64,000 nucleotides of DNA, taken from contig OZ024750.1 in the NCBI GenBank assembly GCA_964016885.1, positions 36,766,001 to 36,830,000 on the forward strand. The letters run 5' to 3'. Shown one piece after another: positions 2,390-63,853 of this stretch. The notes below the pieces were generated by a model, which saw only the letters and a program-made list of their open reading frames with translations, ran no database searches and was not told the DNA's origin. This DNA comes from Eledone cirrhosa (taxonomy: Eukaryota). How positions within the stretch are numbered: position 1 is the stretch's first letter; every line of letters begins with the position of its first letter. The translations under genes and the position numbers were made by a program.

Positions 2390-2461
2390 CACGACACATG
2401 TTTCAATAAGAGATAGATCGATCGTGTAGCCATGATCGATTGACACTGATCTCGTCAGGTG
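2390..2461 (-). ncRNA. Type I hammerhead ribozyme motif with long stem II
   Basis: Minus strand: CAC-CTGACGA-GAT..(internal ATCGATC/GATCGAT hairpin)..ATT-GAAAC-ATGT-GTC-GTG; palindromic stem III ACATGT, GUC triplet. Confidence 0.7.
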
Positions 2462-3359: not shown

Positions 3360-3550
3360 ATCTGGTTCCTATAGCAGAATCAGTAGAGGGGCTGGAGAAT
3401 AAATTCTGGCTATGGAAACAGCAGTTGGAATGAAGCGGACTGAGAGTGAATCTAGCTAAGACAAAAGTGTTGATGAGTAGAAAAGAGGACAAAACTCTGA
3501 TTCCGTCCAGGAAATGGCCATGTTCGATATGCATAAAAGGAACTGGCATC
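3360..3550 (+). pseudogene. RTE LINE reverse transcriptase fragment
   Basis: IAESVEGLENKFWLWKQQLE*SGLRVNLAKTKVLM...KWPCSIC; lacks the rest of the ORF and has an in-frame stop. Confidence 0.85.
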
Positions 3551-4498
3551 CGTTGCTTTCAGCAGGATCACTTTCGAAAAATTCCCACTGTACCTCTATA
3601 TTGCACGTCTCTAATTGCTCTTCCTTATTGTCAAAGGCATCAAGTAATAAGCTTTTAAATTTGTCACTGGCTATGGGGTCCTTCAACTTACATATTCTTC
3701 TCCTGAAGGTAGTCCTCCGCTGTCGTCGAGTACGTCTATTCCTGACTATGAGGTCACTAACTACTAGGCTATGTTGGGAGGTGCATTCTTCACGGGGGAG
3801 GGATTTAGTGTTTACAACAGACACTTTGTCACGTCTTCTAGTAAGGATATAATCTATCTGGCTGGCGTGTTCCCCTGATCTATAGGTGAACAATTGGTTT
3901 TCTCGTTTTTTGAAGTTTGTGTTACAGATAGTTAGGTTATTAGCTTCACAGAATTCCAGGATTCTGAAGCCTTCCTCATTTCTATTTCCAAAGCCATACC
4001 CTCCATGGATTCCATCATAGCCATCACTATGTTGTCCAACGTGACTGTTTAGTTTGCCAGCAATAATTAAGTAGTCGCTGTCGGTTATTTGGGAGGTGGT
4101 ATGCATTAGCGTCTCATAGAACCTGTCCTTTATAATGTCAGGTAGACCAGATTGGGGTGCATAAGCAGATGTTATTGTCACAGTAGTTCTATTTAGAACT
4201 AGTCTTATTTTAATTATTCTGTCATTCACTCTATTTACGTCAATTACCTTATCTACCCATTTTTTAGCTAACGTAATTCTTACACCACCCAGTCCGTTGT
4301 CATTTCCCACCCAGAAAAGTTTACAGCATCGTTTTTTACCCACAATGAATCTGGCAGACCCATCTCTCCACCTAGTCTTGAACACAACAAACATCAACTT
4401 CTTTATGTTCAAGCATCTCTACAACCTCATTTGAGCGACCTTTCAATGTGCCTACGTTCACGGTACCAACTCTGAAGTTGGGAGGGTGGGATGGATGG
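3551..4498 (-). pseudogene. RTE LINE apurinic-like endonuclease fragment
   Basis: ORF 3456..4412 has SAYAPQ, G.LNSHVG, GYGFGNRNEEG, NTNFKK and QIDYIL motifs; joined in inverted orientation to the RT piece. Confidence 0.92.
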
Positions 4499-5379: not shown

Positions 5380-5595
5380 ACCAACCAGATGTGAGAAAAA
5401 CCACAAACCCTCCATCTCAATTCTTCTTTTGAAAAGCAGAACTGCAAAACCGGTAAAGGGACCAAGTAAATATATATTGTTATAAAAATAAGACTCCAGT
5501 TGCATTTTCGATTTCATCTTTTTTTCTTATACTTTCATTCGTGTAGGACATCTCGTTTTTTTTTTCATTTTGTAAAACATCACTTTCTAACAATA
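5380..5595 (+). mobile_element. 3' end of hammerhead-bearing Penelope-like family (same as 2625-2780, 23550-23650, 63630-63860)
   Basis: Hammerhead 5426-5458 CTT-TTGAAAA-GCA-gaac-TGC-AAAAC-CG-GTA-AAG (G12>A), then AT-rich tail running into (TA)n. Confidence 0.7.
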
Positions 5596-8361: not shown

Positions 8362-8714
8362 ATCATCATCAATTTATTTTATGTCTGCTTTTCCCTGCTT
8401 GCAAGGAACTGATTCTGGCTTGATTTCTACAGCTGGATGCCCTTCCTAACACCAGCCTCATTTACAGTGACGCCTACACGTCCACTTTACAGTGTGGGCT
8501 GGGTGTTTTTTTGCTTTGGCACTTCCACAACCACTTTGCAGTGGAATGATATGGACCCCAGCCCCTATCATCTCATTTCTACAGCTGAGTGAACTGGAGC
8601 AATGTGAAATAAAGTGTCTTGCTCAAGGAAACAACACATCACCCGGTCTGAGAATTGAACTCACAACCTTTCGATTGCAAGGCCAATGCTCTAACCACTA
8701 ACCCGTGTGCCTTC
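8362..8714 (-). mobile_element. SINE family B (tRNA head, CCTTGAGCAAGACACT core, RTE-derived tail)
   Basis: Reverse complement of 27821-28148. Confidence 0.92.
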
Positions 8715-9276: not shown

Positions 9277-9335
<59 letters not shown>

Positions 9336-9566
9336 GAAACACACAGATACATGCGGACACACACATATATACATGAATGCATCCGCACCCAACTGTGAGT
9401 TAAGGGTGCCAACTTCACCGATGTTGCTCAATGAATGACTGGGACAGACCAATTCAGTTTGAACCAGACTGAACCAGTATCAGAGTTAAAAATACATTAT
9501 GAAGAGAGAAGAAACATTTAGATATAATTAGTAATAAAATGTATCATACCTAAACTGCTCCTAAAT

Positions 9567-9654
9567 TCCTCGACTACGTAGTTTCGTGGCATAAACAAAA
9601 ACAATATATCAAAGATATAGAGTCCTTGCGAGGTCTGCCAACTTATCAAGAGGA
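9567..9654 (-). ncRNA. Type I hammerhead, U3-A8 variant (mirror copy)
   Basis: Reverse complement of 10427-10514. Confidence 0.8.
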
Positions 9655-10426
9655 TACCTCATTTTACTAGTCTCAAGAACGCGTCTACACGACGTGAGAA
9701 AGAATCCCAAAAGGCGGAGGGGGAGATAGTCACGCGATATAACGGTCGAGAAACAGAGCTAAGCCTCTTATAACCACGAAGAAAATACCACGGAGGCGGA
9801 GGGGGTATTCATATCGAGGCCGTAGAAGAGGTAGTGAAGAAGGCGAGAAGTATGAGTAATGGAAGCTTTCCAGTTGTCCCCACACTTCAAAGATTGCTCG
9901 ACCAGAGGGAGTTATTAATATATTTAGAAACACACAGATACATGCGGACACACACATATATACATGAATGCATCCGCACCCAACTGTGAGTTAAGGGTGC
10001 CAACTTCACCAATGTTGCTCAATGAATGACTGGGACAGACCAATTCAGTTTGAACCAGACTGAACCAGTATCAGAGTTTGGCACCCTTAACTCACAGTTG
10101 GGTGCGGATGCATTCATGTATATATGTGTGTGTCCGCATGTATCTGTGTGTTTCTAAATATATTAATAACTCCCTCTGGTCGAGCAATCTTTGAAGTGTG
10201 GGGACAACTGGAAAGCTTCCATTACTCATACTTCTCGCCTTCTTCACTACCTCTTCTACGGCCTCGATATGAATACCCCCTCCGCCTCCGTGGTATTTTC
10301 TTCGTGGTTATAAGAGGCTTAACTCTGTTTCTCGACCGTTATATCGCGTGACTATCTCCCCCTCCGCCTTTTGGGATTCTTTCTCACGTCGTGTAGACGC
10401 GTTCTTGAGAATAGTAAAATGAGGTA

Positions 10427-10514
10427 TCCTCTTGATAAGTTGGCAGACCTCGCAAGGACTCTATATCTTTGATATATTGTTTTTGTTTATGCCACGAAAC
10501 TACGTAGTCGAGGA
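10427..10514 (+). ncRNA. Type I hammerhead, U3-A8 variant, extended stem II
   Basis: TCCTC-TTGATAA-GTTGGCA..TGCCAC-GAAAC-TACGTA-GTC-GAGGA; 5-bp stem I, G10.1-C11.1 pair, palindromic stem III ACTACGTAGT, GUC site at 10507-10509. Confidence 0.82.
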
Positions 10515-10583
10515 ATTTAGGAGCAGTTTAGGTATGATACATTTTATTACTAATTATATCTAAATGTTTCTTCTCTCTTCATA

Positions 10584-10648
<65 letters not shown>

Positions 10649-13164: not shown

Positions 13165-14473
13165 TGCGGTCACATTGGACAACATAGTGATGGCTATGAT
13201 GGAATCCATGGAGGCTATGGGTTTGGAAATAGAAATGAGGAAGGTTTCTGAATCCTGGAATTCTGTGACACTAATAATCTAACTATCTGTAACACAAACT
13301 TCAAAAAACGAGAAAACCACTTGATCACCTATAGATCAGAGGAACACGCCAGCCAGATAGATTATATCCTTACTAGAAGACGTGACAAAGTGTCTGTTGT
13401 AAACACTAAATCCTTCCCCCATGAAGAATGCACCTCCCAACATAGCCTAGTAGTTAGTGACCTCATAGTCAGGACTAGATGTACTCGACGACAGAGGAGG
13501 ACTACCTTGAGGAGAAGAATATGGAAATTGAAGGACCCCATAGCCAATGACAAATTTCAAAGCTTATTACTTGATGCCTTTGACAATAAGGAAGAGCAAT
13601 TAGAGACGCACAATATAGTTGCTGAGATGTTGAAGTCATCTGGAATGGTGGGACATACTATGGTCACCCGTATAGTAAAACAAGTAATACATGGGGTCAT
13701 ACCAAAAGACTGGCATAGCAGCATCATCATTAACTGCTACAAGGGTAAAGGGATGCTCTAGATAGGGGAAACTATAGAGGCATTAAGTTAGTTGACCAGG
13801 TCAGGAAAGTCACAGAAAGAGTTATAGCGCAATTAATCAGAGAGCGAATTGATCTAAATGAAATGCAGTTTGGCATGAAAGACGACAGCTGTATAAAAAA
13901 TTGCAAGGTGACCAAAATTGAAGGTAGTTACGGAGTAGGTAGACCCAGAAAAACCTGGGACGATTTGATAAATTCCGACCTTACACACTTGCACCTCTCT
14001 AAGACAATGTCACTGGACCGAGATCTTTGGCGCTACGCAGTAATACAGAAGACCCGCCTTGCCTATATACAAAGCGAAACCTACAGTCAGTAGGCCCCTC
14101 TTAACCAAATATACACCCCAATCCACTACCCCCTACCCTATCCTCCCACTCCCACCAACACCACCTTCTCTCTGTAAAGTTGGTACCACAACATTCAGTC
14201 TAAATAAATGAGATAATGAGATCGAGATCGTGTAGGTGTCATGACAAAAAAACACTGTCCCCGGTGTACTGTTGCCGGTAAAAAGTTCCCAGTCCACACT
14301 GTAAATGTGGTTGGTGTTAGGAAGGGCATCCAGCCGTAGAAAACCTGCCAGACAGTCTTATATGAGCGAGACACGGTCACCCGACCAACCTTGCCTCAAA
14401 TGGGACAACTCCCGTCTAACCCATGCTAACGTGGAAGATGGACGTTAAATGAAGATGATGAGATGATGATGAT
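13165..14473 (+). pseudogene. Internally deleted RTE LINE (EN, RT start, C-terminus, 3' UTR)
   Basis: Closely matches the reverse complement of 3600-4040; AEMLKS..IPKDW..YKGKG, NYRGIKL, MQFG then jumps to GRPRKTW; (GAT)n tail. Confidence 0.9.
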
Positions 14474-15190
14474 CCACTCTGCTTCTTCCACACATACACT
14501 ATGGATCTCTAACATACATACATGCCCACACACTGTGTCTGTAACACAAACGCACACACAATGTGTCTTTAACACCCACACACACACACTCACACACAGC
14601 TGCCTTCAAAGTATTTTGCTATTTTTATGAATGCTAAAATCTCGACTAATTTGGAACAATTTTCTTTGATTTCTTTCAGCCCACCATTTAATGTTTGGTT
14701 TTTCTATTATTTTATTATAAATTACATCCATTGTTACTATTTTCTATATTATTATTTATCTTTATATTTATATTTTGTCAATGTGCACAAATAATTCATT
14801 TGATTATTTCCTTTTAGAACTATATATATATAAATAATTTTTAGACACAATGTCATTTTTCCTCTGGATATGCTAATACAGATATATAAACAGCTAAAAG
14901 TGAAATAAATATTTATCCGAGAAAGAACCATTTACACATGACACACAAGATCAAATGTATTTTTATTTAATGTTGTAAATGTGTTCAGTTGAAAATCCTA
15001 TAACTAATTGTATTTGAATTATTTGCAATGTAATTAGGATCAAAGTATTTAAATTTAAACTGGGTTAACACCCTTTCCTATGGACAAGGGGTCGGGATAG
15101 GTGGAGTAATACAATATCTATATAAAATAGTTTAACAACCTTTGCTGTAGACAAGGGGACAAGATGGGTGGAGTAATAAAATATCTCCCT

Positions 15191-16101
15191 CTATCTAGGG
15201 CGGGTAAAATTCCCGAGATCATGGACGAGTTCTCTCCAGCGGTCTTTGTCCCTCATTATCGCTGCCATGCCCTGCGTCTCCAACAGACCAGTGTCTGTCC
15301 TTAGGGCATCAACATACGTTAACCTTGGTCTTCCTCTTCCAGTGTATTTGGGAGCAAAGATTGGGAATATGGAAGATGATGTGGTTGAGAGGAAGAGCAA
15401 AGCCTGGGCGGCGTGCCACAGCTTGAGATCGGTGTGGAAGTCGGACCTTCGTGAAGACCTGAAGATACGCCTCTTCATTGCTGTAGTGGAGTCTGTGCTG
15501 CTGTACGGGTCTGAGACTTGGACACTGACCAAGAAACTCACCCAGATGGTGGATGGGTGCTAGACGAGAATGCTGAGGATGGCTCTGAACATTAATCAGT
15601 ATACACTGAGGATGAAAAACTCAGAGCTGTATGGGAGCATCCCAAAAGTCAGCTCAAAAGTGACACAGAGGAGACTGAGGTTAGCTGGACATGCTCACCG
15701 ACATCCAGAGTTGACACTGCACTTAGTGCTCCTGTGGGAGCCCCTACATGGACACACTGGAAGAGGGAGGCCGAGGATATGTAGGGGTGTGTGTATATAT
15801 ATAAATACAGCTTGAAAGTAACGCAGAGGAGACTGAGGTTAACTGGACATGCTCACCGACATCCAGAGTTGAAACTGCACTTAGTGCTCCTGTGAGAGCC
15901 CCTACATGGACACACTGGAAGAGGGAGGCCGAGGATATGTAGGGGTGTGTGTATATATATATTTATATATACAGCTTGAAAGTAACGTAGAGGAGACTGA
16001 GGTTAGCTGGACATGCTCACCGACATCCAGAGTTGACATTGCACTCAGTGCTTCTGTGGGAGCCCCTACATGGACACACTGGAAGAGGAAGACCGAGGTT
16101 A
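15191..16101 (+). pseudogene. Second RTE family: RT C-terminus with inverted 3' piece and tandem re-copies
   Basis: SVLLYGSETWTLTKKL..RMLRMAL..RRLRLAGH..GRGRP; 15191-15345 is the true 3' end in minus orientation; the RRLRLAGH-GRP block is present three times. Confidence 0.85.
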
Positions 16102-18946: not shown

Positions 18947-19074
18947 GGAACTAATCTGTTGCAGTGAGTATTAAAAAGAAGTGCACTGCACAACAGTGCA
19001 TATTGCACAACAGTGTGCAGTTGAGTGAGAAACTGTTGAAATGGAGAGGTAGAGAGAATGTGTTACTGTGACAG

Positions 19075-20645
19075 AGAGGGGGGGAATAATAGATAGAGAG
19101 AGGGGGGAGTAATAGATAGAGGGATATATTGTGTGAGAGAGAGGGGGGGAGTAATAGATAGAGGGATATATTGTGAGAGAGAGAAGGGGGAGTAATAGAT
19201 AGAGGGATATATTGTGAGAGAGAGAGGGGGGAGTAATAGATAGAGGGATATATTGTGTGAGAGAGAGGGGGGGAGTAATAGATAGAGGGATATATTGTGA
19301 GAGAGAGAAGGGGGAGTAATAGATAGAGGGATATATTGTGAGAGAGAGAGGGGGGAGTAATAGATAGAGGGATATATTGTGAGAGAGAGAGAGGGAGTAA
19401 TAGATAGAGGGATATATTGTGAGAGAGAGGGGGAGTAATAGATAGAGGGATATATTGTGAGAGAGAGAGGGGGAGTAATAGATAGAGGGATATATTGTGA
19501 GAGAGAGAGAGGGGGGAGTAATAGATAGAGGGATATATTATGAGAGAGAGAGAGGGAGTAATAGATAGAGGGATATATTGTGTGAGAGAGAGGGGGAGTA
19601 ATAGATAGGGGGATATATTGTGAGAGAGAGAGGGGGAGTAATAGATAGAGGGATATATTGTGTGAGAGAGGGGGGAGTAATAGATAGAGGGATATATTGT
19701 GTGAGAGAGAGGGGGAGTAATAGATAGAGGGATATATTGTGTGAGAGAGAGGGAGTAATAGATAGAGGGATATATTGTGAGAGAGAGAGGGGGAGTAATA
19801 GATAGAGGGATATATTGTGTGAGAGAGAGGGGGTAGTAATAGATAGAGGGATATATTGTGTTAGAGAGAGGGGGGAGTAATAGATAGAGGTATATATTGA
19901 GAGAGAGGGGGGAGTAATAGATAGAGGGATATATTGTGTGAGAGAGAGAGTGGAGTAATAGATAGAGGGATATATTGTGAGTAATAGATATATTGTGAGA
20001 GAGAGAGGGGGAGTAATAGATAGAGGGATATATTGTGAGAGAGAGAGAGGGGGAGTAATAGATAGAGGGATATATTATGAGAGAGAGAGAGGGAGTAATA
20101 GATAGAGGGATATATTGTGAGAGAGAGGGGGGAGTAATAGATAGAGGGATATATTGTGTGAGAGAGAGGGGGGAGTAATAGAGAGAGAGAGAGGGGGAGT
20201 AATAGATAGAGAGAGGGGGGAGTAATAGAGAGAGAGAGAGGGGGAGTAATAGATAGAGAGAGGGGGAGTAATAGATAGAGGGATATATTGTGAGAGAGGG
20301 GGGGAGTAATAGATAGAGGGATATATTGTGTGAGAGAGAGAGGGGGAGTAATAGATAGAGGGATATATTGTGAGAGAGATGGGGAGTAATAGATAGAGGC
20401 ATATATTGTGAGAGAGAGAGGGGGAGTAATAGATAGAGGCATATATTGTGAGAGAGCGAGAGGGGGTAATAGATAGAGGGATATATTGTGAAAGAGAGAG
20501 GGGGAGTAATAGATAGAGGCATATATTGTGAGAGAGAGAGGGGGAGTAATAGATAGAGGCATATATTGTGAGAGAGAGAGGGGGAGTAATAGATAGAGGG
20601 ATATATTGTGTGAGAGTGTGTGAGAGAACGACAGGAGTAATAGAC
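19075..20645. repeat. Purine-rich minisatellite, ~40-45 bp unit
   Basis: GGGGGAGTAATAGATAGAGGGATATATTGT(GA)n, roughly 35-40 copies with variable GA/G spacer. Confidence 0.97.
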
Positions 20646-20989
20646 TGAGATAGAGAGAGAGGGGTAGTGAGAGGGAAGATGCTAGCGAGAGGTAGTGAGA
20701 ATGAAGGGCTTAGAGGGAGGTTTAATTGAGAAGAGTGAAAGTGGGAGAACTCACAGGGTATCTCTCTGGTTATTATATTTTTGTAAGGTGGAAAGATAGA
20801 GGGGGAGAGAGGTAACAGACAGATATATACAGAGAGGTGGGCGGAGGGGGGGAGAAAAGGAGCAAAATATAACATGAAAGAGATAGAGTAAGAGAAAAGG
20901 GTAGCAGGCAGAGAGATATAGAGGTAGATAGGGGAGAGACAGAGTGGGGTAGTAGATAGAGAGAGAGAGAGATAACTTGAGAGAGGGGA

Positions 20990-21870
20990 GGGGGCTGGTG
21001 ACAGGTAGCTATAACATGAGAGAGAGGGAGGGAGGGGTGACAGTCAGATATAGCATGACAGAGAGAGGGAGGGGGTGACAGGCAGATATAACATGACAGA
21101 GAGAGGGGTGACAAGCAAATATAACATGACAGAGAGAGAGAAAGGGCGTGACAGGCAGATATAACATGACAGAGAGAGGGAGGGGTGACAGGCAGATATA
21201 ACATGACAGAGCAAGAGAGAGGGGCGTGACAGACAGATATAACATGACAGAGAGAGAGAAAGGGCGTGACAGGCAGATATAACATGACAGAGAGAGAGGG
21301 GGGGGGGTGACATGCAGATATAACATGACAGAGAGAGAGGGATGGAGTGACAGGCAGATATAACATGACAGAGAGAGAGGGGGGTGACAGGCAAATATAA
21401 CATGACAGAGAGAGAGAGAAAGGGTGTGACAGGCAGATATAACATGACAGAGAGAGAGGGAGGGCATGACAGGCAGATATAACATGAGAGAGAGAGAGAA
21501 AGAGAGGGAGGGTGACAGGCAGATATAACATGACAGAGAGAGAGTGAGAGCATGACAGAGAGCGGGAGGGGGTGACAGGCAGATATAACATGAAAGAGAG
21601 AGAGGGAGGGAGGGGTGACAGGCCGATATAACATGACAGAGAGAGAGAAGGAGGGTGACAGACAGATATAACATGACAGAGAGAGAGGGGGGTGACAGGC
21701 AGATATAACATGACAGAGAGAGGGGGGTGACAGGCAGATATAACATGACAGAGAGAGAGAGGGGCGGTGACAGGCAGATATAACATGACAGAGAGAGAGG
21801 GGCGGTGACAGGCAGATATAACATGAGAGATAGAGAGACGGGCGGTGACAGGCAGATATAACATGAGAGG
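20990..21870. repeat. Purine-rich minisatellite, ~36-42 bp unit
   Basis: GTGACAGGCAGATATAACATGACA(GA)nG(n), about 22 copies. Confidence 0.97.
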
Positions 21871-22104
21871 GGGTGAAAGAAGTAAAAAAAGAGGGGGAGA
21901 AGGGTAAGAAACAGAGAGGGGAAAGGGTAACTGATAGACAGAGAGAGAGAGAAAAGGATAAGATACAGAAAGAGAAGATGGTGAAAGAAGAGAGAGCTAG
22001 AGAGAGGAAGATATTTATGGATATAATCCAGTCGAGAATTCAATTGAAATAACAGTTATTGATTTTCCATTGACTTTTTCTACTTTCTTCAAACTGCAGG
22101 AAAA

Positions 22105-22612
22105 TGATGAGAGAGATATGGCATGGGTTGTAGTGTTGATATCACTGATATAGCTGAGTTTGATGAGAGAGATATGGCATGGGTTGTAGTGTTGATATCA
22201 CTGATATAGATGAGTTTGATGAGAGAGATATGGCATGGGTTGTAGTGTTGATATCACTGATATAGATGAGTTTGATGAGAGAGATATGGCATGGGTTGTA
22301 GTGTTGATATCACTGATATAGAAGAGTTTGATAAGAGAGATATGGCATGGGTTGTAGTGTTGATATCACTGATATAGAAGAGTTTGATGAGAGAGATATG
22401 GCATGGGTTGTAGTGTTGATATCACTGATATAGAAGAGTTTGATGAGAGAGATATGGCATGGGTTGTAGTGTTGATATCACTGATATAGAAGAGTTTGAT
22501 GAGAGAGATATGGTATGGGTTGTAGTGTTGATATCACTGATATAGAAGAATTTGATGAGAGAGATATGGCATGGGTTGTAGTATTGATATCACTGATATA
22601 GATGAGTTTGAT
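22105..22612. repeat. 56-bp tandem repeat, 9 copies
   Basis: TGATGAGAGAGATATGGCATGGGTTGTAGTGTTGATATCACTGATATAGATGAGTT; units start at 22105, 22161, etc. Confidence 0.97.
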
Positions 22613-22879
22613 TAGGGTGATAGTAATATTTGGGAGGGTGGAGAATAGTAATTGTGGGGATGGTGGTGATGTTGTTAATAGTTGGGGGTGTTAGGGAGAG
22701 GGGGATATAGATTGTAGCTATAGTTGATGATATTGATGTTGGAATGAGAATCTATTCATACCAGATGCACATACACACATGCATATAAATTTTTAATCAC
22801 AGATATTCGTTATTTGTTTGACCCAAATTACTTGATAACCATCGTCTCAGTGTGTTTGGCCTTTAACGTTTGTTATAGC

Positions 22880-23595: not shown

Positions 23596-23631
23596 CTTTT
23601 GCAAAGCATAAGAACTGTGAAACTAGTAAAG
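23596..23631 (+). ncRNA. Degenerate U3-A8 hammerhead (family of 2686-2721)
   Basis: CTT-TTGCAAA-GCA-taagaac-TGT-GAAAC-TA-GTA-AAG; A6>C; stem III is still palindromic (ACTAGT). Confidence 0.6.
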
Positions 23632-24220: not shown

Positions 24221-25472
24221 TAGCAGAGGCACCCGGTATTGCCTGGGAATGAAATTGTTCCTTATATATTAGAAGGAAGAAGCTAAATATGTTGTATAGA
24301 AATTTGTTATTCTAAATTCAATTTATTCTTCAATTGGGATACATGATGAAATCAATTCTGAATTCATAATACAAAAAAAAAATACTAATAATAATAATAA
24401 TAAATGAAAATACAAAATTTACCACTTTTATCATATGCTGAAGGAAATTATATAAGAGCTTCTGGGTAAACAACATTCTTGGTTTTCTGGTTTGGAGCAT
24501 AGAAAAATAAGTCTTCTTAACTACCCACCCTGGAGCAACCAACATAAAGTTGACAATGAGAAAATCAAGGCTCAATTAAGTGCAAGCCAGTAGATTTCAA
24601 AGTCTGACCTTGAGCTTTATTAATAGACATTGCGAAGTAAAGTCTCACTAGGAATTGTGTTCGTTTGAACTCAAATGGTATGTCTGTTGGTTTGATTGGA
24701 ATTCTTGGAATGAAAACTTCTTCCCCAGAGGCACACCCAGTGATGATGGTAGCTTCTATCATATTAGGTGATAATGTCTTCTCAATCAACCTTGTCCTAT
24801 TGAATAATTTAGGAGGATCTAAATCTCTTAGAAGCATTATTGGGACTCCTACCTTCAGAAAAAGTTTATGTGGAGGAGTTCCAGGTGGCTCAAGAGAATT
24901 AAGGAACTCGGTTAGTGGACAGCTTGATTTTCATCAAGGACTGAATCAACTGATTTGTACTCCTTAATGACTGTTGGAATCTTATTCATTAATTCATGGT
25001 TAATCCTTGCTAATGTCTCATTTTTTTTAGCAAGAATTTCCCTTTCACACAACTATTTATCTGAATTATAATTATTACTTAAGTCTGTAAATACCCTGTA
25101 GGGTCAGAATTCAGCTTAGGATTCCTCCATGATAACAATATGAGCCAAATTGATATCACCATTCCCATCAATTGGTACTTTCCTATTTCCTAATTGGAAC
25201 TGGGTTGAAAACTGTTCTGCACATTGGTCCCTATGTAATAAGTATTGCATGTTAGTATTGAAGGAGAATTTCTGTACTTTATACGATAGCTGCGAAGACT
25301 TAATACATGCTTTTATTTCATCAGCTCTTGTTCCTCTCGGAATGACTGGTAATGTCTGTCTGAAGTCTCTTGATAAAACTAATGTAACTCCTCCCATAGA
25401 TTTATTGTTGCCTCTTATGTCTTGTAAGGTCTTATCAAGAGCTTCCATTGCACTGATATGTGACATGGTGCA
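24220..25472 (-). mobile_element. Helitron 3' portion: PIF1-like helicase pseudogene plus terminus
   Basis: ECTM..EALDKTLQDI..GGVTLVLSRDFRQTLPVIPRG and [28 protein letters not shown]; minus-strand end CCCAGGCAATACCGGG hairpin then CTAG into TA. Confidence 0.93.
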
Positions 25473-25520
25473 TTCCCTTGCAAGCAGGGAAAAATGGACG
25501 TAAAAGGATGATGATGATGA

Positions 25521-25848
25521 TATCTTTTTTACGTCCGCTTTTTCCCTGCTTGCAAGGGTGGGACGGGAACTGATTCTGGCTTGATTTCTACAGCTGGATG
25601 CCCTTCCTAACACCAACCTCATTTACAGTGAGTGCTGGGTGCTTTTTTGCCGTGGCACCTCCACGACCATTTTGCAGTGGAATGATATGGACCCCAGTCC
25701 CTATCATCTCATTTCTACAGCTGAGTAAACTGGAGCAATGTGAAATAAAGTGTCTTGCTCAAGGAAATAACACATCACCCGGTCTGAGAATTGAACTCAC
25801 AACCTTTCGATTGCAAGGCCAATGCTCTAACCACTAAGCCATGCGCCT
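25521..25848 (-). mobile_element. SINE family B
   Basis: Full copy; a short inverted tail piece lies at 25472-25520. Confidence 0.93.
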
Positions 25849-27529: not shown

Positions 27530-27587
27530 ATACTATGATCATTTCAATGACCGGGTTCCGTATGAATCTGGTGATATCATCAGGTAT
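27530..27587 (-). ncRNA. Type I hammerhead motif
   Basis: Minus strand: ATAC-CTGATGA-(imperfect 31-nt stem II)-GAAA-TGATCA-TA-GTAT-AATAAA; palindromic stem III, AUA triplet. Confidence 0.65.
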
Positions 27588-42217: not shown

Positions 42218-42538
42218 ATATATATATGAATATATATATATATATATATGTATATGCATATATCTATATATATGTATATCTCATGCAAACCAAAAAGTTT
42301 GGATATACGAATAATAATAAATATTGCCTGTACAGCTAATCAAAGGGTGTATACATTTTGGGGGGACACCCTGTATATATATATATATATATATATACTG
42401 GTGTGAGTGTATATATATGTATATGATGATGAATGTATGTATTGTATATTTGGCAATATACTGTATGTTTAATTAAAAACATTTTGAAAACTATTTATTT
42501 TAAAGTTTTAAAGTAGTGACGATGTCACTTACTTATTC

Positions 42539-42627
42539 TCGGCAAAAACAGCAGAGAGTGATTGTCAGACAGTCTGTTTCTCGCTTGTTAGCGTTTATCA
42601 AGACCCCATACTCTGCTGCCTTTGTCG
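42539..42627 (-). ncRNA. Hammerhead motif, U3-A8 core, long extended stem I
   Basis: Minus strand: CGACAAAGGCAGCAGAG..GTC-TTGATAA-A-CGCT-aaca-AGCG-A-GAAACAG-a-CTGTC-TGAC..CTCTGCTGTTTTTGCCG. Confidence 0.6.
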
Positions 42628-42917
42628 ATAATTATAGAAGCTGGATTCTTATAGAATTCCAGTAATAATCAGTATATTGCTAAATATACTATACATACAT
42701 CCATGTATACATCGTATTTCAGAACACCAATACTATTATATATATATATATAAAGGATAACAAAATATCGTTATAGGTAATCCAATTAGAGGCTGTGAAT
42801 ACTTCTTCTTATGGATAGTTTTAGCATATGGCTTTGCTTGATTCAACAAGAGGTTTATGTAGATGACGAGTTTATGATTTCACTTGTATTCCTATGTAAG
42901 TTTATCTTGGAGTAATA

Positions 42918-43849
42918 AAATTGAAAAAGTGGAGAATAACATAGTCAACAGTACAAAAAAGGCAATTTATTTGCAGTCTAACAATTATTTCACTGATAGA
43001 GTTGTCTAAAAATTGCTGAACACTAAAAGCAGTGCCACTCAATTTTAAATACAATGTTAACTCTATTAGATCATTGGAAACTGTTAAAACAAATATATAT
43101 ATGTAACCGGCAAATTTACAAATTCAAATTACATCATCAATAATAATTGCTTCTACTTTTGGCACAAGGCCAGCAATTACCCAGTGTATTACTGGTACTT
43201 TATTTTATCAACTCAATAATAATATTAATAATAAAGATATAGAGAGAAAAGGAGGAAGAAAGGGAGATAGATACAGTAAAGAAAAAAAAGGAAAGGAAGG
43301 AGATAGAAGAAGGAAAAAGAGAAAGAAGAAAAGGAGAAATTATTATAGATAGAAATATAAAGAGAGGAAGATATATAAAGAGAGGAAGATATATATCTTC
43401 CTCTCTTTATATTTCTATCTATAATAATTTCTCCTTTTCTTCTTTCTCTTTTTCCTTCTTCTATCTCCTTCCTTTCCTTTTTTTTCTTTACTGTATCTAT
43501 CTCCCTTTCTTCCTCCTTTTCTCTCTATATCTTTATTATTAATATTATTATTGAGTTGATAAAATAAAATACCAGTAATACACTGGGTAATTGCTGGCCT
43601 TGTGCCAAAAGTAGAAGCAATTATTATTGATGATGTAATTTGAATTTGTAAATTTGCCGGTTACATATATATATTTGTTTTAACAGTTTCCAATGATCTA
43701 ATAGAGTTAACATCGTATTTAAAATTGAGTGGCACTGCTTTTAGTGTTCAGCAATTTTTAGACAACTCTATCAGTGAAATAATTGTTAGACTGCAAATAA
43801 ATCGCCTTTTTTGTACTGTTGACCATGTTATTCTCCACTTTTTCAATTT
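42918..43849. repeat. ~930-bp palindrome centred at 43392/43393
   Basis: Arms 475 and 457 bp (18-bp duplication in the left arm), a handful of substitutions, no spacer; a SINE A tail is mirrored at 43143-43212 / 43553-43627. Confidence 0.95.
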
Positions 43850-52708: not shown

Positions 52709-52749
52709 AATCTTGATAAAGAGCAATAACCCTAAAATAATTGTAGATT
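52709..52749 (+). ncRNA. Degenerate U3-A8 hammerhead with short upstream foldback
   Basis: AATC-TTGATAA-AGAG-caataa-CCCT-AAAA-TAATT-GTA-GATT; the inverted copy at 52683-52704 restores stem II AGGG/CCCT; G12>A. Confidence 0.55.
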
Positions 52750-56273: not shown

Positions 56274-56612
56274 GGAGGTACATGGCTTAGTGGTTAGAGC
56301 ATTGGCCTTGCAATCGAAAGGTTGTGAGTTCAATTCTCAGACTGGGTGATGTGTTGTTTCCTTGAGCAAGAGACTTTATTTCACATTGCTCCAGTTTACT
56401 CAGCTGTAGAAATGAGATGATAGGGACTGGGGTCCCTATCATTCCACTGCAAAGTGGTCGTGAAGGTGCTACGGCAAAAAAGCACCCAGCACTCACTGTA
56501 AATGAGGTTGGTGTTAGGAAGCACATCCAGCTGTAGAAATCCTGCCAGAATCAGTTCCCGTCCCACCCTTGCAAGCAGGGAAAAGCGGATGTAAAATGAT
56601 GATGATGATGAA
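56274..56612 (+). mobile_element. SINE family B
   Basis: Full copy. Confidence 0.92.
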
Positions 56613-58639: not shown

Positions 58640-59122
58640 AGAGAGAATACTGCGTTGGTAGAGATGTGATGCATATGGATGATGATAACTGGGTGAAGAA
58701 GTGCCAGGAAATCTCAGTGGAAGGAAGACCAAGGAAGACCTGGGCAGAGGTGGTCAGAGCTGGGGTCGACAGAATAAAGTACCAGTAATGCACTGGGTAA
58801 TTGCTGGCCTTGTGCCTAAAGTAGAAACAATTATTATTATTGTAGTAAGGGCGGTGGATTGGCTGTATCGGTAGAGGGTCGGACGCCATGCTTTTCAGCA
58901 TAGAGTTACGGTCCTTTATGGTCTAAGTTCAAATCCTGCTGAGGTTAACTTTGCCTTTTATCCTTACGGGGTCGATAAAATAAAGTACCAGTAATGTACT
59001 GGGTAATTTGCTGGCCTTGTGCCAAAAGTAGAAATAATTATTACGGGGTTGATAAAATAAAGTACCAGTAATACACTGAGATGATTGCTGGCCTTGTGCC
59101 AATAGTAGAAACAATTATTATT
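58640..59122 (+). mobile_element. RTE C-terminal scrap followed by SINE family A stack
   Basis: MHMDDDNWVKKCQEISVEGRPRKTWAEVVR (58665-58760), then SINE A pieces. Confidence 0.85.
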
Positions 59123-59125
59123 ATC

Positions 59126-59167
<42 letters not shown>

Positions 59168-59168
<1 letters not shown>

Positions 59169-62100
59169 CCAACATTGCCATATTAAGAGTAGGAAGTTTA
59201 AATGTTCGAGGCCTGGAGTCGCCCTGGAAGCAGGGTCACCTGCTCAACGACCTCAGGGCTCTACAAATGGATGTAATTGCTGTCAGTGAGACCATGATTT
59301 CCGACACGTGTGCAATAGCCCCCATTTTCGATGACTATCGGATCTTCGCATCTGTTAGTCAGCCTGGAATGGGATGCGGAGTGGCAGTGCTATTTAGGAA
59401 AGGTTTGGATCTCAAGGTAAGGTTGATCTTCCGGGACCCGGACGGAAAGTCAGTGGTCCTGGATATGAACAATAGCGAAGATGGTGCCTTTAGACTGGTG
59501 GCCGTCTACGTCCCTACCGGGGAAGGACGGCCAAACTTCTTTATACGCCTGTGTACATCTCGCCCTTTATCATTAGTGGGGAAATGGAATGGCATCTTAG
59601 ATGCATGCTAGGACTGTGTGGGAGTAGCCGATAGGAGCGGGGGGTGCAATAGCCTCAAGTACCTGATCAGCAAGTTCCAACTGTCTGACAGATATTGACT
59701 ACATTTCCCTAATGCGGCAGTGTGGAGCTGGACCAATCATATAGGGTCATCTAGATCATATATAGACAAGATATTCATTAGGAAAATAGATAGAAATAGT
59801 GTACTCTGTCCACATTTTAAAACAGTCAACCATATAGATCACAAGTTTGTGATCTGAATAGGTGACCTAGAGAAGACTTGTAGATTAGGACCTGGTTACT
59901 GGAAGCTGAACATGTCGTTTCTGGCACAGAAGGCTTACAGGGATTGGGTCAACAATTTAGTTAAACAAAAATTGACAGAGGGGTGGTCATCAACAACAGA
60001 TGGTGGGGGGCTCTCAAAAGAGGGATTAGAGTAAGTTTGATATAGTTTAACAAAGAAGTGCCATTAGAGAAAAATAGAAAGGAGGGGGAGCTGGTAGCTA
60101 AGTTAGACGAGGCTATTTGTAGTGTCGGTGAGAATGGCATTAGACCATTTCTTCAATGCGAAACACAAAGGTTGCATTGTCAGAGCTAAGGCGTGTGCTC
60201 TGAGAAACAAGGGAACCAAAGTTGTTCGATAGGCCTGCGTGGCAGAGGTGCAGCGTGGTAATAAAACCACAATATGGTCTTTGACGGACTGAGATGGACA
60301 CGAGCTGAGCGATTCCAGGCGGATAGTGATGGACTTCAGTCTCTACCTCAACGGCTTCCTGCACCTTTTGACAGCCAACGTTGAGAGCTGTGAAAGGCTG
60401 ATAACTACAGACGAAATTCCTGATTCCCTTGTGCGCTGCATGAGGCGCAAATCACCCGGTTTGGATGGTCTGCCCTTCGAGCTTTACATAGATATGCCAG
60501 ACTTGTTCTCCAATCTCCTCATGCACTCTACTGTAACTGGCAGCAGAACGGAAGTATTCCCAGTTCTGTGAGCCAGGGCATAGAGACACTGATAAGGAAA
60601 GACAAGAACAAGAGGGACACATTAGATAACTTCAGGCGACCCATAACTCTGCTCAACACAGACTTTAAGATTTTGGCCAAGGTTGAAAATTTGGTTGGGG
60701 AGGCACAAACTTGTGCAATCACTACCAGGACCATACACAATAACCTCCACCTCATGCAATACATCATAGAGAGGGTAGGGTGTAAACCTAACTTTGGTGG
60801 GGCTCTGATCAATTTAGAGCAATCAAAAGCATTCAATAAAGTTGACCATCGCTACCTGGAGGCTGTCCTCAAGGCAGTTGGCTTCAACCCCATCTTCAGA
60901 AGCTGGATTGTTGCAATGCAGTACGGCATCTGCTCAGTGGTCAAAGTTCATGGCCACCTCTTGGAACCATGTCAGATCTCTCAATTGGCACCGTCAATGG
61001 TGTCCTCTTTGCTCCCTTCTGTACGTATTGACTCTCAAGCCTTTACTGCAGAAACTGAAGCTGTTGTAGGGCATCCCGCTCGAACTGGGATGCGGAAAGG
61101 CTGTGTCAGCTTATGCAGACAACATCACCGTGATGGGGTCAGACACCTTGGAAATCGAGGTGGTCGGCAATTTATTGGAGGAATATGAAAGGTTGACGGG
61201 AGCAAAACTTAACCCGGAAAAATCGGTGAGCTTGCAACTTGGCACTTGGAGAGGCAAGTCCATGCTGTCCAACAGTGTCATTGGGTGCTAGACAGATGGT
61301 CCGGTAAAGTTGCTTGGGGTTTGGTCGGGCCAGACCTCCTGGTGGATAAGAATTGTGATGAGGTGATGGGCAGGTTAGCCAGTCTCACCCAGAAATGGGC
61401 TGTGAGGAAGCTATCACTGAAAGGTTTGGCGGAGGTGGCGAATGCGTACATCACGTCGTCATCTATTACCCCTTGACCATCATGCCTTGCCCCTATCCGC
61501 GCCTCGCCAAGTTGGAACGGCTCCTCTTCAAATTCTTTTGGAGGGACAGGTTCCATTGGTGAGATGGTCCAATTGCTGCCAGCACCTTCTGCGCAGAGGG
61601 CTGGGCATGCCGTGGCTAATGATACGCTGAGATTGCGGCATCTCCAGATATTCTGCCTTGATGGTGCTCGCTGTTTGTCAGACAGGCCTTTCTGCAACAG
61701 TCCTGGGTCAAGTATAGACCGAGACTGGGTGACTGGCATCTGGAATGTTGCCAGGCACTTACTGCTCTCTACCAGGCAGGCTATGTGGTCAGTGGAATTT
61801 CAACTCTTGAGTTCTATAGAGGATTAGTGGTGGGCAAGTGTGACGACTCACTTGGAGAGACTTTGGGCATCAACGAAGTTCAACCGACCAGTCTGTTCAG
61901 GAGGACCTTCAAGCCAGGGACGATGGATAACTTCCAAAAATCCCTTGCTTGGCAGTGCTGCTGGGGGGGGGGGGGGGCACTGCCAGTTCAAGATAAACTC
62001 TACAGGTACAGAAGTGCTGTCAGATGGACCTGCCCGAGATGCGCGCAGAGCGACGAAACCATTCTGCACGCACTCGTTCAGTGTTCGTGCATTACTGACT

Positions 62101-62690
62101 TGTCGAGTTATGTCAGACAGCTGTTGTCGCATGTAGAACGGATCCGGCTATTGACCAAGTCCATAGTGAAGATTGATTCGCCGCCTTCTTTTGGCCAGGA
62201 AGAGCAGGCAATTTTCCTCTGTCTGGTGGCAGTTGCAAAAGAGGTTGTATGGTGGACGAGGCTGAAAGTCCTGAAGACAGACACTTTCTCTTCGGCCAAT
62301 CCCTCATCAACTTTTTCAAATTTCACTTGGTGAGGAAGGAGAGAGAAGTGCTGCCCCCCCCCCCCCCCCAGTACATTTGCTGAAAGGTGGGTGAATGTGG
62401 CGACAATGGCCCGCGTGAGTGGGCCTACCCTGATCATGATCCTGTAGGCTGGTGAATTTGAGGCGGAGAGAGGGGTGCCCTCGAAGTGTCAGGTGGTTCA
62501 GGATTGGTGGGGTACCTGAAGCAACCCTGAGTGGTTATCTCCCCTATTGGGGAATTTTCATTGTTGTATTTTTCTTATTGCTATTGTTTTCCTATTTTTT
62601 ACTCGATTTTTATGTAAAACCCCCACTGTCCCCGTCTATTGTATTGTGCCCTATATGTCGGCCCTTGTGGCCAATATATAAAACCATTAT
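59168..62690 (+). pseudogene. L1/Tx1-clade LINE, near-complete but disrupted ORF2 plus 3' UTR
   Basis: EN (GSLNVRGL, VSET, VAVYVP, SYIDKI, DH, GYWKLN), RT (KSPGLDGLP, RPITLLNTDFKILAK, KAFNKVDH, SAYADN), zinc knuckle CPRC..ETILHALVQC; many frameshifts and stops. Confidence 0.93.
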
Positions 62691-62772: not shown

Positions 62773-63629
62773 TATTGCAGTAGTAGTAGCAGTAGTAGTT
62801 ATATAGTTATCTATTCATTGATCTATTTCTATGAGGAATATATGAAGTGCATGACAGTCAGTAGAGAATGGGGACAGGTAAAAACTTTAAGGAATAGATG
62901 GTGCAATTACCTGTTGCTGATTAAAAGAATTCATTTATTTTATAGAGTGAAGTCATTAGCTGTACATTAATCAACAATATTTTATATCAAAAGAAAATTA
63001 TTTTCTATTTCAGCAGTTTTTGGTAATAAAGACAATATTATTTGGCTATTTTATCTTCTTTCTATAATCTCTCATTAAATGGAGAGTCTTTGATTATTGA
63101 AAATATTCATCTTATTTTAAAAACAGCTATAAATAGATTATAATTTACATCAAAATTTCAAAATCACTGTTTAAATTAGCTAATGCATTTATCATGTTTT
63201 GCATATTACTAATAAAAAAAAAAATAATGAAATAAACTCAATAAATAAATAATGAGAAGCAGAGAAAATATAATAAAATCAAATAAAATCAAATGAAAAA
63301 AATAAAAAATAAAGAAAGGCAGAAATAAAAGTCCACAACAAATAGATGCTATCAGAATTCTGACAGTTAAAATTAAGTTGTTTTGGAAATGATATATATT
63401 ATATTACTTAGCAAAGTAAATATGTGTTGTTAGGGACAAAAGAAACTCTTAGAGGAACAAAAATTCTACTATTTGTTGGCAGGATATTGTTTCCCCACAG
63501 GATCGAACCAGGAAATCAATACACATACCACTTAAGATGCAAATCATAGATTTTAAAACAGACATACACATTGAGGGAGAGTAAAGGAAGATATAACTTT
63601 AATTGTATATATATATAGAGAGAGAGAGA

Positions 63630-63853
63630 GAGAAAAAGAGATGAAATCGAAAATGCAACGGGAGTCTTATTTTTTTTTTTTAAATATATATATTTATTTG
63701 GTTCCGCGAAACCGGTAAAGGAACCAAATAAATATATATATTTTTTTTTAAAAATAAGACTCCAGTTGCATTTTCGATTTCATCTCTTTTTCTTTATACT
63801 TTCACTCGTGTAGGACACCTCGGTTATTTTTCAATTTGTAAAAAAAACCTCAC

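Follow-up and report, generated by a model that had tools for sequence, protein, structure and literature searches.

The hammerhead at positions 10427–10514 raises the question of whether a core that carries U3-A8 in place of the canonical C3-G8 pair is a product of decay or chance, or a state that its family inherits and keeps. We examined it in a window of 64,000 nucleotides, the whole stretch of DNA analysed here, which is AT-rich animal DNA from the 3.0-Gb assembly of Eledone cirrhosa. The sequence at 10427–10514 (+) folds as a type I hammerhead (HHR) with the U3-A8 core UUGAUAA at 10432–10438. Stem I is formed by UCCUC and GAGGA, stem II is closed by G10.1-C11.1 and carries a single bulge and a long extension, the GAAA is present, stem III is palindromic (A-CUACGUAG-U), and the GUC ends at 10509. 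The U3-A8 observation at this place is confirmed. The hammerheads in the window are the following:

10427–10514, plus strand: type I hammerhead, U3-A8, palindromic stem III, predicted cut after C10509; core 10432–10438
9567–9654, minus strand: identical hammerhead in the inverted arm of the family A insertion; core 9649–9643, UUGAUAA
2635–2759, minus strand: family B, fragment from the terminal repeat of a Neptune-type PLE, its U3-A8 hammerhead intact and with a GUA site; core 2718–2712, UUGAAAA
5278–5528, plus strand: family B fragment, decayed hammerhead with G12>A at a CpG; core 5429–5435, UUGAAAA
23563–23646, plus strand: family B fragment, decayed U3-A8 hammerhead with A6>C, absent from the preliminary description; core 23599–23605
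42374–42672, minus strand: family C, non-coding unit of about 320 nt, U3-A8 hammerhead with U16.1>A; core 42601–42595, UUGAUAA
52704–52866, plus strand: family D short element, U3-A8 hammerhead decayed by G12>A, with an inverted piece to the 5' side of the element; core 52713–52719, UUGAUAA
27583–27577 (core), minus strand: canonical C3-G8 hammerhead of another multi-copy family, likewise absent from the preliminary description
2458–2452 (core), minus strand: canonical C3-G8 hammerhead of another multi-copy family, also absent from it

The preliminary description had cited six U3-A8 cores, and all of them were found, at 10432(+), 9649(-), 2718(-), 5429(+), 42601(-) and 52713(+); the G12>A changes of the 5426 and 52709 copies were also seen in the sequence. 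It had assigned them to four unrelated families, which is borne out, as families A (10427/9567), B (2686/5426), C (42539) and D (52709) have only microsatellite similarity in common. The mirror copy at 9567, given there as a further case, is the other arm of the insertion that holds 10427 and is hence not independent. Three helices, the order N3-UGA-N7-N8-A ... GAAA ... UH and complementary positions 3 and 8 are present in the copies at 10427, 9567 and 2686, and for families C and D at the level of the family consensus. Among the cited U3-A8 copies only these three passed the strict descriptor; the 42539 copy failed because of its U16.1>A, which the family C consensus does not have. In Rfam no hammerhead reached the gathering score in the whole window, the C3-G8 motifs included, and no hammerhead model matched 10300–10600 at E≤10; since C3-G8 motifs are missed at the gathering threshold too, the U3-A8 core alone does not explain the miss. 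A match to Rfam mir-268 (25 bits against a gathering score of 47) was set aside as chance. In addition, stem III is palindromic or near-palindromic in the C3-G8 hammerheads at 27577–27583 (-) and 2452–2458 (-), a short inverted piece lies at 42670–42748 beside the family C copy, and family B terminal fragments form an inverted pair at 63606–63798, where the first half of the core is missing.

We then compared the core state across the copies of each family. In the whole genome the exact pattern of family A gave 6,637 matches with U3 and 14 with another base at position 3 (7 C, 4 G and 3 A, all with A8), while the reversed-sequence controls gave 0; A8 was present in 99 of the first 100 U3 matches listed (of 6,637). 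Among the 30 best-scoring loci of each other family, picked by similarity to the window copies, U3-A8 was found in 30/30 for B, 29/30 for C and 30/30 for D. The remaining copy of family C is U-G, and one of its 29 U3-A8 copies has a 2-nt deletion in the core. With 6,637 against 14 in A and 29–30 of 30 in B, C and D, U3-A8 is the state of the family and not decay, and in none of the four families is the consensus CUGANGA. That the cores are decayed canonical hammerheads, or chance in AT-rich DNA, is thus highly improbable: four U3-A8 copies in the window are indeed decayed (5426, 23599, 42539 and 52709), and C>T and G>A are common changes, but the family-wide state refutes it, U3-A8 is also found in young intact PLEs, and controls gave only 0–2 matches per Mb. 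The preliminary description had read the change of both partners as selection rather than decay. The second half of this holds, given the family-wide U3-A8 state and the rarity of mismatched cores. Its argument for selection from unrelated families does not, because these cannot show independent compensatory change when one U3-A8 ancestor could be common to them; the evidence comes instead from alignable sister subfamilies.

Moreover, all family consensuses keep G5, A6, A9, G12, A13, A14 and a base other than G at 17. G12 is the consensus in 29/30 loci of B and 24/30 of D and the A variants follow a C-G dinucleotide, so that G12>A is copy-specific decay. Divergence in the core and in the flanks was 1/299 and 221/3765 for C, 1/225 and 82/2841 for E, 11/300 and 176/2264 for D, and 5/270 and 76/2938 for B; the lower core divergence is only suggestive because matches were chosen by similarity and B is little different. 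Family A sequences are too uniform for a test of compensatory change. A rule of U3-A17 avoidance was not seen, A17 being present in B, D, E, F and H. The family C consensus has an A-A mismatch at 10.1-11.1, and in the census hits L121–L220 a mismatch there (U-U, C-A or A-A) in place of the usual G-C is a family trait in many. Loci L341, L342 and L344 are C3-A8 copies of an older family A subfamily, about 75–80% identical to the young unit; this state may go back to a mismatch intermediate that was copied, or to decay in parallel.

The preliminary description had called for a count of core states, and we made it on 100 evenly spaced 10-kb stretches (1 Mb), with positions 3 and 8 free and type I layouts only. 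The first descriptor found 46 C-G, 13 U-A, 1 C-A and no other states. The second, which allowed a longer stem III, found 45 C-G (13 clusters), 15 U-A (4 clusters, 9 loci), 1 C-A and no others, U3-G8 included. C3-G8 is therefore the majority state in the sample, and U3-A8 accounts for 15 of 61 intact motifs. Chance matches are excluded, as 61 per Mb in the real sequence compare with 0 in the reversed and 0–2 in five shuffled ones. Scaling 15 U3-A8 per Mb to the genome overshoots, because family A was sampled at 6 per Mb and counted directly at 2.2. A search for CUGANGA only would miss about a quarter of this genome's intact type I motifs. The suggestion that U3-A8 may be commoner than catalogued was largely anticipated by the Schistosoma survey of Cervera and de la Pena 2014 (PMC4209133, as far as its text describes).

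In that survey a U3-A8 descriptor gave about 1,300 matches beside about 2,000 canonical ones for the PLE hammerheads of Schistosoma mansoni. By its description, these share with ours the type I layout, the palindromic stem III, the position in PLE terminal repeats, the UUGAUAA and UUGAAAA cores, the many dispersed families and the inverted pairs a few hundred bases apart. Eledone cirrhosa differs from what is described there as follows: alignable sisters show both states; there is a third state, G3-C8; U3-A8 accompanies endonuclease genes of the Neptune type as well as of the Penelope/Poseidon type; and stem II of family A has a long extension. Natural covariation from C3-G8 to U3-A8 is also reported, with several examples, by Perreault et al. 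2011 (PMC3088659), who cite earlier work for activity in vitro; U3-A8 is a rare core variation there, against 15/61 intact motifs in 1 Mb here. The U3-A8 variant and the element types are thus already known, and the finding as first written confirms them in a new genome. What our sequence comparisons would add is the census, the repeated switching in one superfamily and the G3-C8 sister family.

Family A is a non-coding unit of 591 nt in head-to-tail arrays (591-nt spacing), with one type I hammerhead per unit and a longest stop-free stretch of 86 codons. The window's insertion, at 9327–10589, lies in (TA)n, has Penelope-type ends and consists of two arms:

9327–10078, minus strand: inverted arm with 1.27 of the 591-nt units; its outer end is at unit position 245 and abuts (TA)n (inverted repeat I1)
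10078–10589, plus strand: forward arm with 0.87 of a unit; its outer end is at unit position 80 and abuts (TA)n

We surveyed the ends of family A in the window and 31 further loci, counting outer ends only where they lay inside the stretch read. All 51 of 51 fell at two unit positions, 74–81 (26) or 243–251 (25), beside TA-rich repeat, and the 18 complete two-armed insertions each had one end of each kind (18/18). The 5' ends are scattered, and the longest arms have 3.5 units. Within an insertion the median difference between units is 1 (14 pairs), and between insertions it is 5 (392 pairs), which fits a circular or uniform multimeric template. In two sequencing runs the unit assembled as a single contig of 620–621 nt, as fits a circle, a tandem array or trace DNA from a high-copy repeat. 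The window insertion has one hammerhead per arm, and is therefore unable to release a unit by itself; the two or more consecutive complete hammerheads by which Li 2026 recognises an active copy, as that preprint is available in part, are absent. This copy is probably a dead end.

Such elements resemble the animal non-LTR retrozymes (described in the consulted parts of Cervera and de la Pena 2020, PMC7229834, and bioRxiv 10.64898/2026.07.22.740005), which are likewise non-coding, arrayed head to tail and equipped with a single type I hammerhead in every unit. The unit lengths of families A and C lie within the 51–972 bp reported for them, and mobilisation by PLEs is proposed there; Li, Clavereau and Pollet 2026 (the same preprint) propose that retrozymes are non-autonomous PLEs. 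Unlike those described, families A and C are U3-A8 with loop 1-loop 2 contacts not evident, and family A has two fixed ends with 5' inversions and is known here from DNA alone. Two fixed ends are also found in PAc, a Poseidon PLE of Anolis carolinensis (PMC11167929, from its main description), where two starts of reverse transcription give two genomic ends and both DNA strands are extended. The two ends are offset by about 165 nt in family A against a 30–40 bp tail in PAc, and family A is non-coding.

Links between hammerheads and PLE endonucleases were firm for three families, B, E and H, all of them U3-A8. The family B hammerhead lies about 1,050 nt 3' of the stop of a frame of 775 aa that contains RT and GIY-YIG domains (RVT_1 scores 27 bits and falls short of its 29.6 cut-off; GIY-YIG scores 28.1 bits and exceeds its own). 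The linker of this frame has C-X4-C-X2-C ahead of GIY-YIG, and the Neptune/Nematis linker is given as CX2-5CxxC before GIY-YIG in the available text of PMC8557442; judged by this motif, family B is the terminal repeats of a young Neptune-type PLE. Its tandem copies are 99.7% identical, and inverted 5' pieces are present. Intact 775-aa frames were read at L251, L252, L253, L254 and L255, and there are many near-identical copies genome-wide. This PLE has been active recently and is a candidate driver of the short families. Outside the window, family E has U3-A8 in 24/25 and lies behind a Penelope/Poseidon-type endonuclease, family H (U3-A8, two loci) has about 1 kb of contiguous homology to a Penelope/Poseidon-type endonuclease gene, and family G has U3-A8 in a few copies. 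The endonuclease tree places B as Neptune-type and E and H as Penelope/Poseidon-type (branch 99.8/100). The family C unit is about 320 nt, with direct repeats at 321 nt in 2/30 loci, and the short family D element has a comparable structure; among the loci examined, no autonomous PLE partner sharing terminal sequence with A, C or D was seen. A tree of endonucleases labelled by core state gave AU p=0.0014 for a single U3-A8 clade and was dropped as a test of switching, because the labels C3-G8 (L004, L127, L163, L172 and L178), F and F-prime came from neighbouring insertions. We also rejected a connection between the G3-C8 family and an autonomous PLE (L323/L352), since six other copies of that PLE's endonuclease family lose their similarity about 600 nt short of the motif.

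The sisters of family C can be aligned with one another (47–92% identity among eight representatives) and hold both pair states. The first 100 of 2,396 matches to a core-free pattern of this C superfamily represent 98 sites, which by hand count are 44 C-G, 49 U-A, 3 C-A and 2 U-G. Among 12 representatives the 3-8 pair is C-G in 6, U-A in 6 and unpaired in 0, and two-sided changes occur in 9/13 pairs, among them all four of stem I. We built a tree from 20 of the 50 collected sequences (259 columns, with columns 3 and 8 removed), leaving out near-duplicates, incomplete sequences and most family C copies. It needs three switches, one of which rests on a weak node (47.7/76), and a single U-A/C-G split was rejected (AU p=0.013). 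In the alignment A2 the window row begins after the core and is so uninformative at 3-8. Recombination between elements can mimic such repeated change. A tandem array of the C superfamily, with at least 11 units of 310 nt that each hold a C3-G8 hammerhead, lies at L170:220-3403 (-).

A third state is found outside the window, in a sister of family F that we call F-prime. Family F is U3-A8 in 20/20 and has a long stem III. F-prime has a G3-C8 core in 30/30 loci (GUGACCA in 29 and GUGGCCA in 1), is 76–80% identical to F over about 135–143 nt, and is absent from the 64-kb window:

L308:1556-1674, minus strand, and L309–L337: G3-C8 multi-copy family with long stem III, sister of F

At least 46 matches to this family were listed and 30 loci read. 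Across five representatives of F and F-prime, 110/110 cells are paired, two stem I pairs are compensated, and 3/22 pairs change on both sides with all cells paired. By hand count, the first 100 of 1,414 F-pattern matches are 95 U-A, 3 U-G, 1 U-U and 1 second G3-C8; the pattern's gap of 30–48 missed the main G3-C8 family, whose gap is 29 nt. Among the listed U-A matches each of the four bases is found at position 7, with 3 and 8 unchanged. Among the F-pattern matches listed and the loci read, no C3-G8 member of F/F-prime was seen. The G3-C8 family has A17, and so avoids the G3-C17 mispair implied by PMC3884650 in the part consulted. A swap from U-A or C-G to G-C needs two transversions. In print, a search of article texts and part of the supplements found engineered G3-C8 variants and no natural one; the engineered mutant in PAc (PMC11167929, main description) has its counterpart here in a natural family state. 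The second G3-C8 sequence, at G000:C1:94867332, has G7. The U3-G8 copies at G000:C1:96147587, 135216362 and 141062269 belong to the F sub-lineage most like the G3-C8 family, and possibly represent a copied wobble state.

Copy counts are not independent events, and the evidence amounts to about three switches within a single superfamily plus one within a second. A rival history has U3-A8 originating a single time, in an old PLE lineage, and spreading by descent and exchange of terminal repeats; the switches would then be recombination and say little about ongoing selection. All three firm PLE-endonuclease links (B, E and H) being U3-A8, the insertion of the elements side by side into the same (TA)n sites and the short C-superfamily tree agree with it. 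We nevertheless regard it as unlikely, since the sequence around the C-superfamily core follows the subfamily and not the core state, B is Neptune-type while E and H are Penelope/Poseidon-type, and G3-C8 needs two further changes whatever the origin. In stem I, some U-A and C-G members of the C superfamily share GCT/AGCT, and other U-A and C-G members share GTC/GAT. As a tentative reading, which we find plausible without leaning towards it, the 3-8 pair evolves freely: sisters may have switched between C-G and U-A several times, one lineage may have fixed G3-C8, and all three states would have founded multi-copy families.

On the whole, we consider it probable that type I motifs reside in PLEs and their short non-coding tandem derivatives, that U3-A8 is inherited family by family, and that the pair is kept because the source elements need an active fold. 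Selection on source elements only fits intact family consensuses together with decayed individual copies. Under the proposed mechanism, tandem units would be transcribed; two motifs would join by their palindromic stem III sequences to form a double hammerhead, probably helped by protein, and cut; the unit RNA would be circularised or kept as an uncut multimer; and a borrowed PLE enzyme would copy it from two fixed start points into (TA)n. Lineages that lose 3-8 pairing would rarely found new subfamilies, while C-G, U-A and G-C lineages all would. Folding predicts that two copies of the 10427 motif join as a double hammerhead, in which the intermolecular stem III has 10 bp and the core stays open (-59.7 kcal/mol, compared with 2 x -23.1); the lowest-energy fold of the monomer is not a hammerhead and lies 1.6 kcal/mol below the hammerhead fold. 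A double hammerhead through stem III has been proposed for PLE hammerheads (PMC4209133 and PMC6765202, in the parts available). Against a pairing requirement, mismatched cores have apparently been copied (U3-G8 is found in 3 of the 100 F matches listed, and C3-A8 in 3 of the 14 family A copies that lack U3).

The motif might instead be kept as a fold or a protein-binding site for the PLE enzyme and not as a cutter, with a structural role for 3-8 pairing. Family A insertions run through the predicted cut site for up to 3.5 units, and several families are mismatched at 10.1-11.1. The 3-8 pair reportedly belongs to the active hammerhead conformation (Martick and Scott, 2006), and the consensuses of all families keep the catalytic-core positions G5, A6, A9, G12, A13 and A14 with non-G17, both of which speak against a mere binding site. 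According to the available text of PMC11167929, anole hammerhead mutants could still insert in vitro, and RNA ending at the cut site of the anole element was not observed, as a binding site would predict, but the C3G/G8C swap partly restores cleavage of that PLE hammerhead. On balance we hold this alternative to be quite improbable, and favour need for an active fold in the source elements. That related repeats hold the 3-8 pair in three forms likely reflects selection for self-cutting, as judged from sequence comparison, and we infer selection on hammerhead catalysis.

Hammerheads may or may not be of use to PLEs: published PLE hammerheads show poor cleavage in vitro (PMC4209133, as its text reports), 8/9 frog retrozyme dimers did not cut (bioRxiv 10.64898/2026.07.22.740005, in the portion consulted), and for one PLE insertion does not depend on cleavage. 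Joint change of a pair of the active fold between similar subfamilies is indirect evidence for a selected fold, and matched C-G, U-A and G-C sisters make such selection testable. If the three states cut, they would be evidence from natural variation that hammerhead catalysis is under selection in PLE-type elements, and would offer near-isogenic natural ribozymes with which to ask what catalysis serves.

Other repeats are also found in the window. An inverted repeat of 460 nt at 42918–43849 has arms that are 99% identical and 12 nt apart, with no hammerhead match. Fragments of LINE-type retrotransposons (endonuclease and RT, recognised by eye) lie at 3456–4418 (-), 13252–13761 (+), 15180–15563 (+) and 59072–62333 (+), and the helicase-like fragments at 24565–25622 (-) presumably resemble Helitron/PIF1. 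A 56-nt tandem array and degenerate purine-rich minisatellites of about 40 nt occupy 21993–22734 and 18951–22055. Finally, a tRNA-like head at 56281–56344 (+) (Rfam RF00005, 29.9 bits) stands on a dispersed repeat of about 300 nt, with further copies near 8391, 25527, 36478, 41894 and 54707, and this repeat is probably a SINE.
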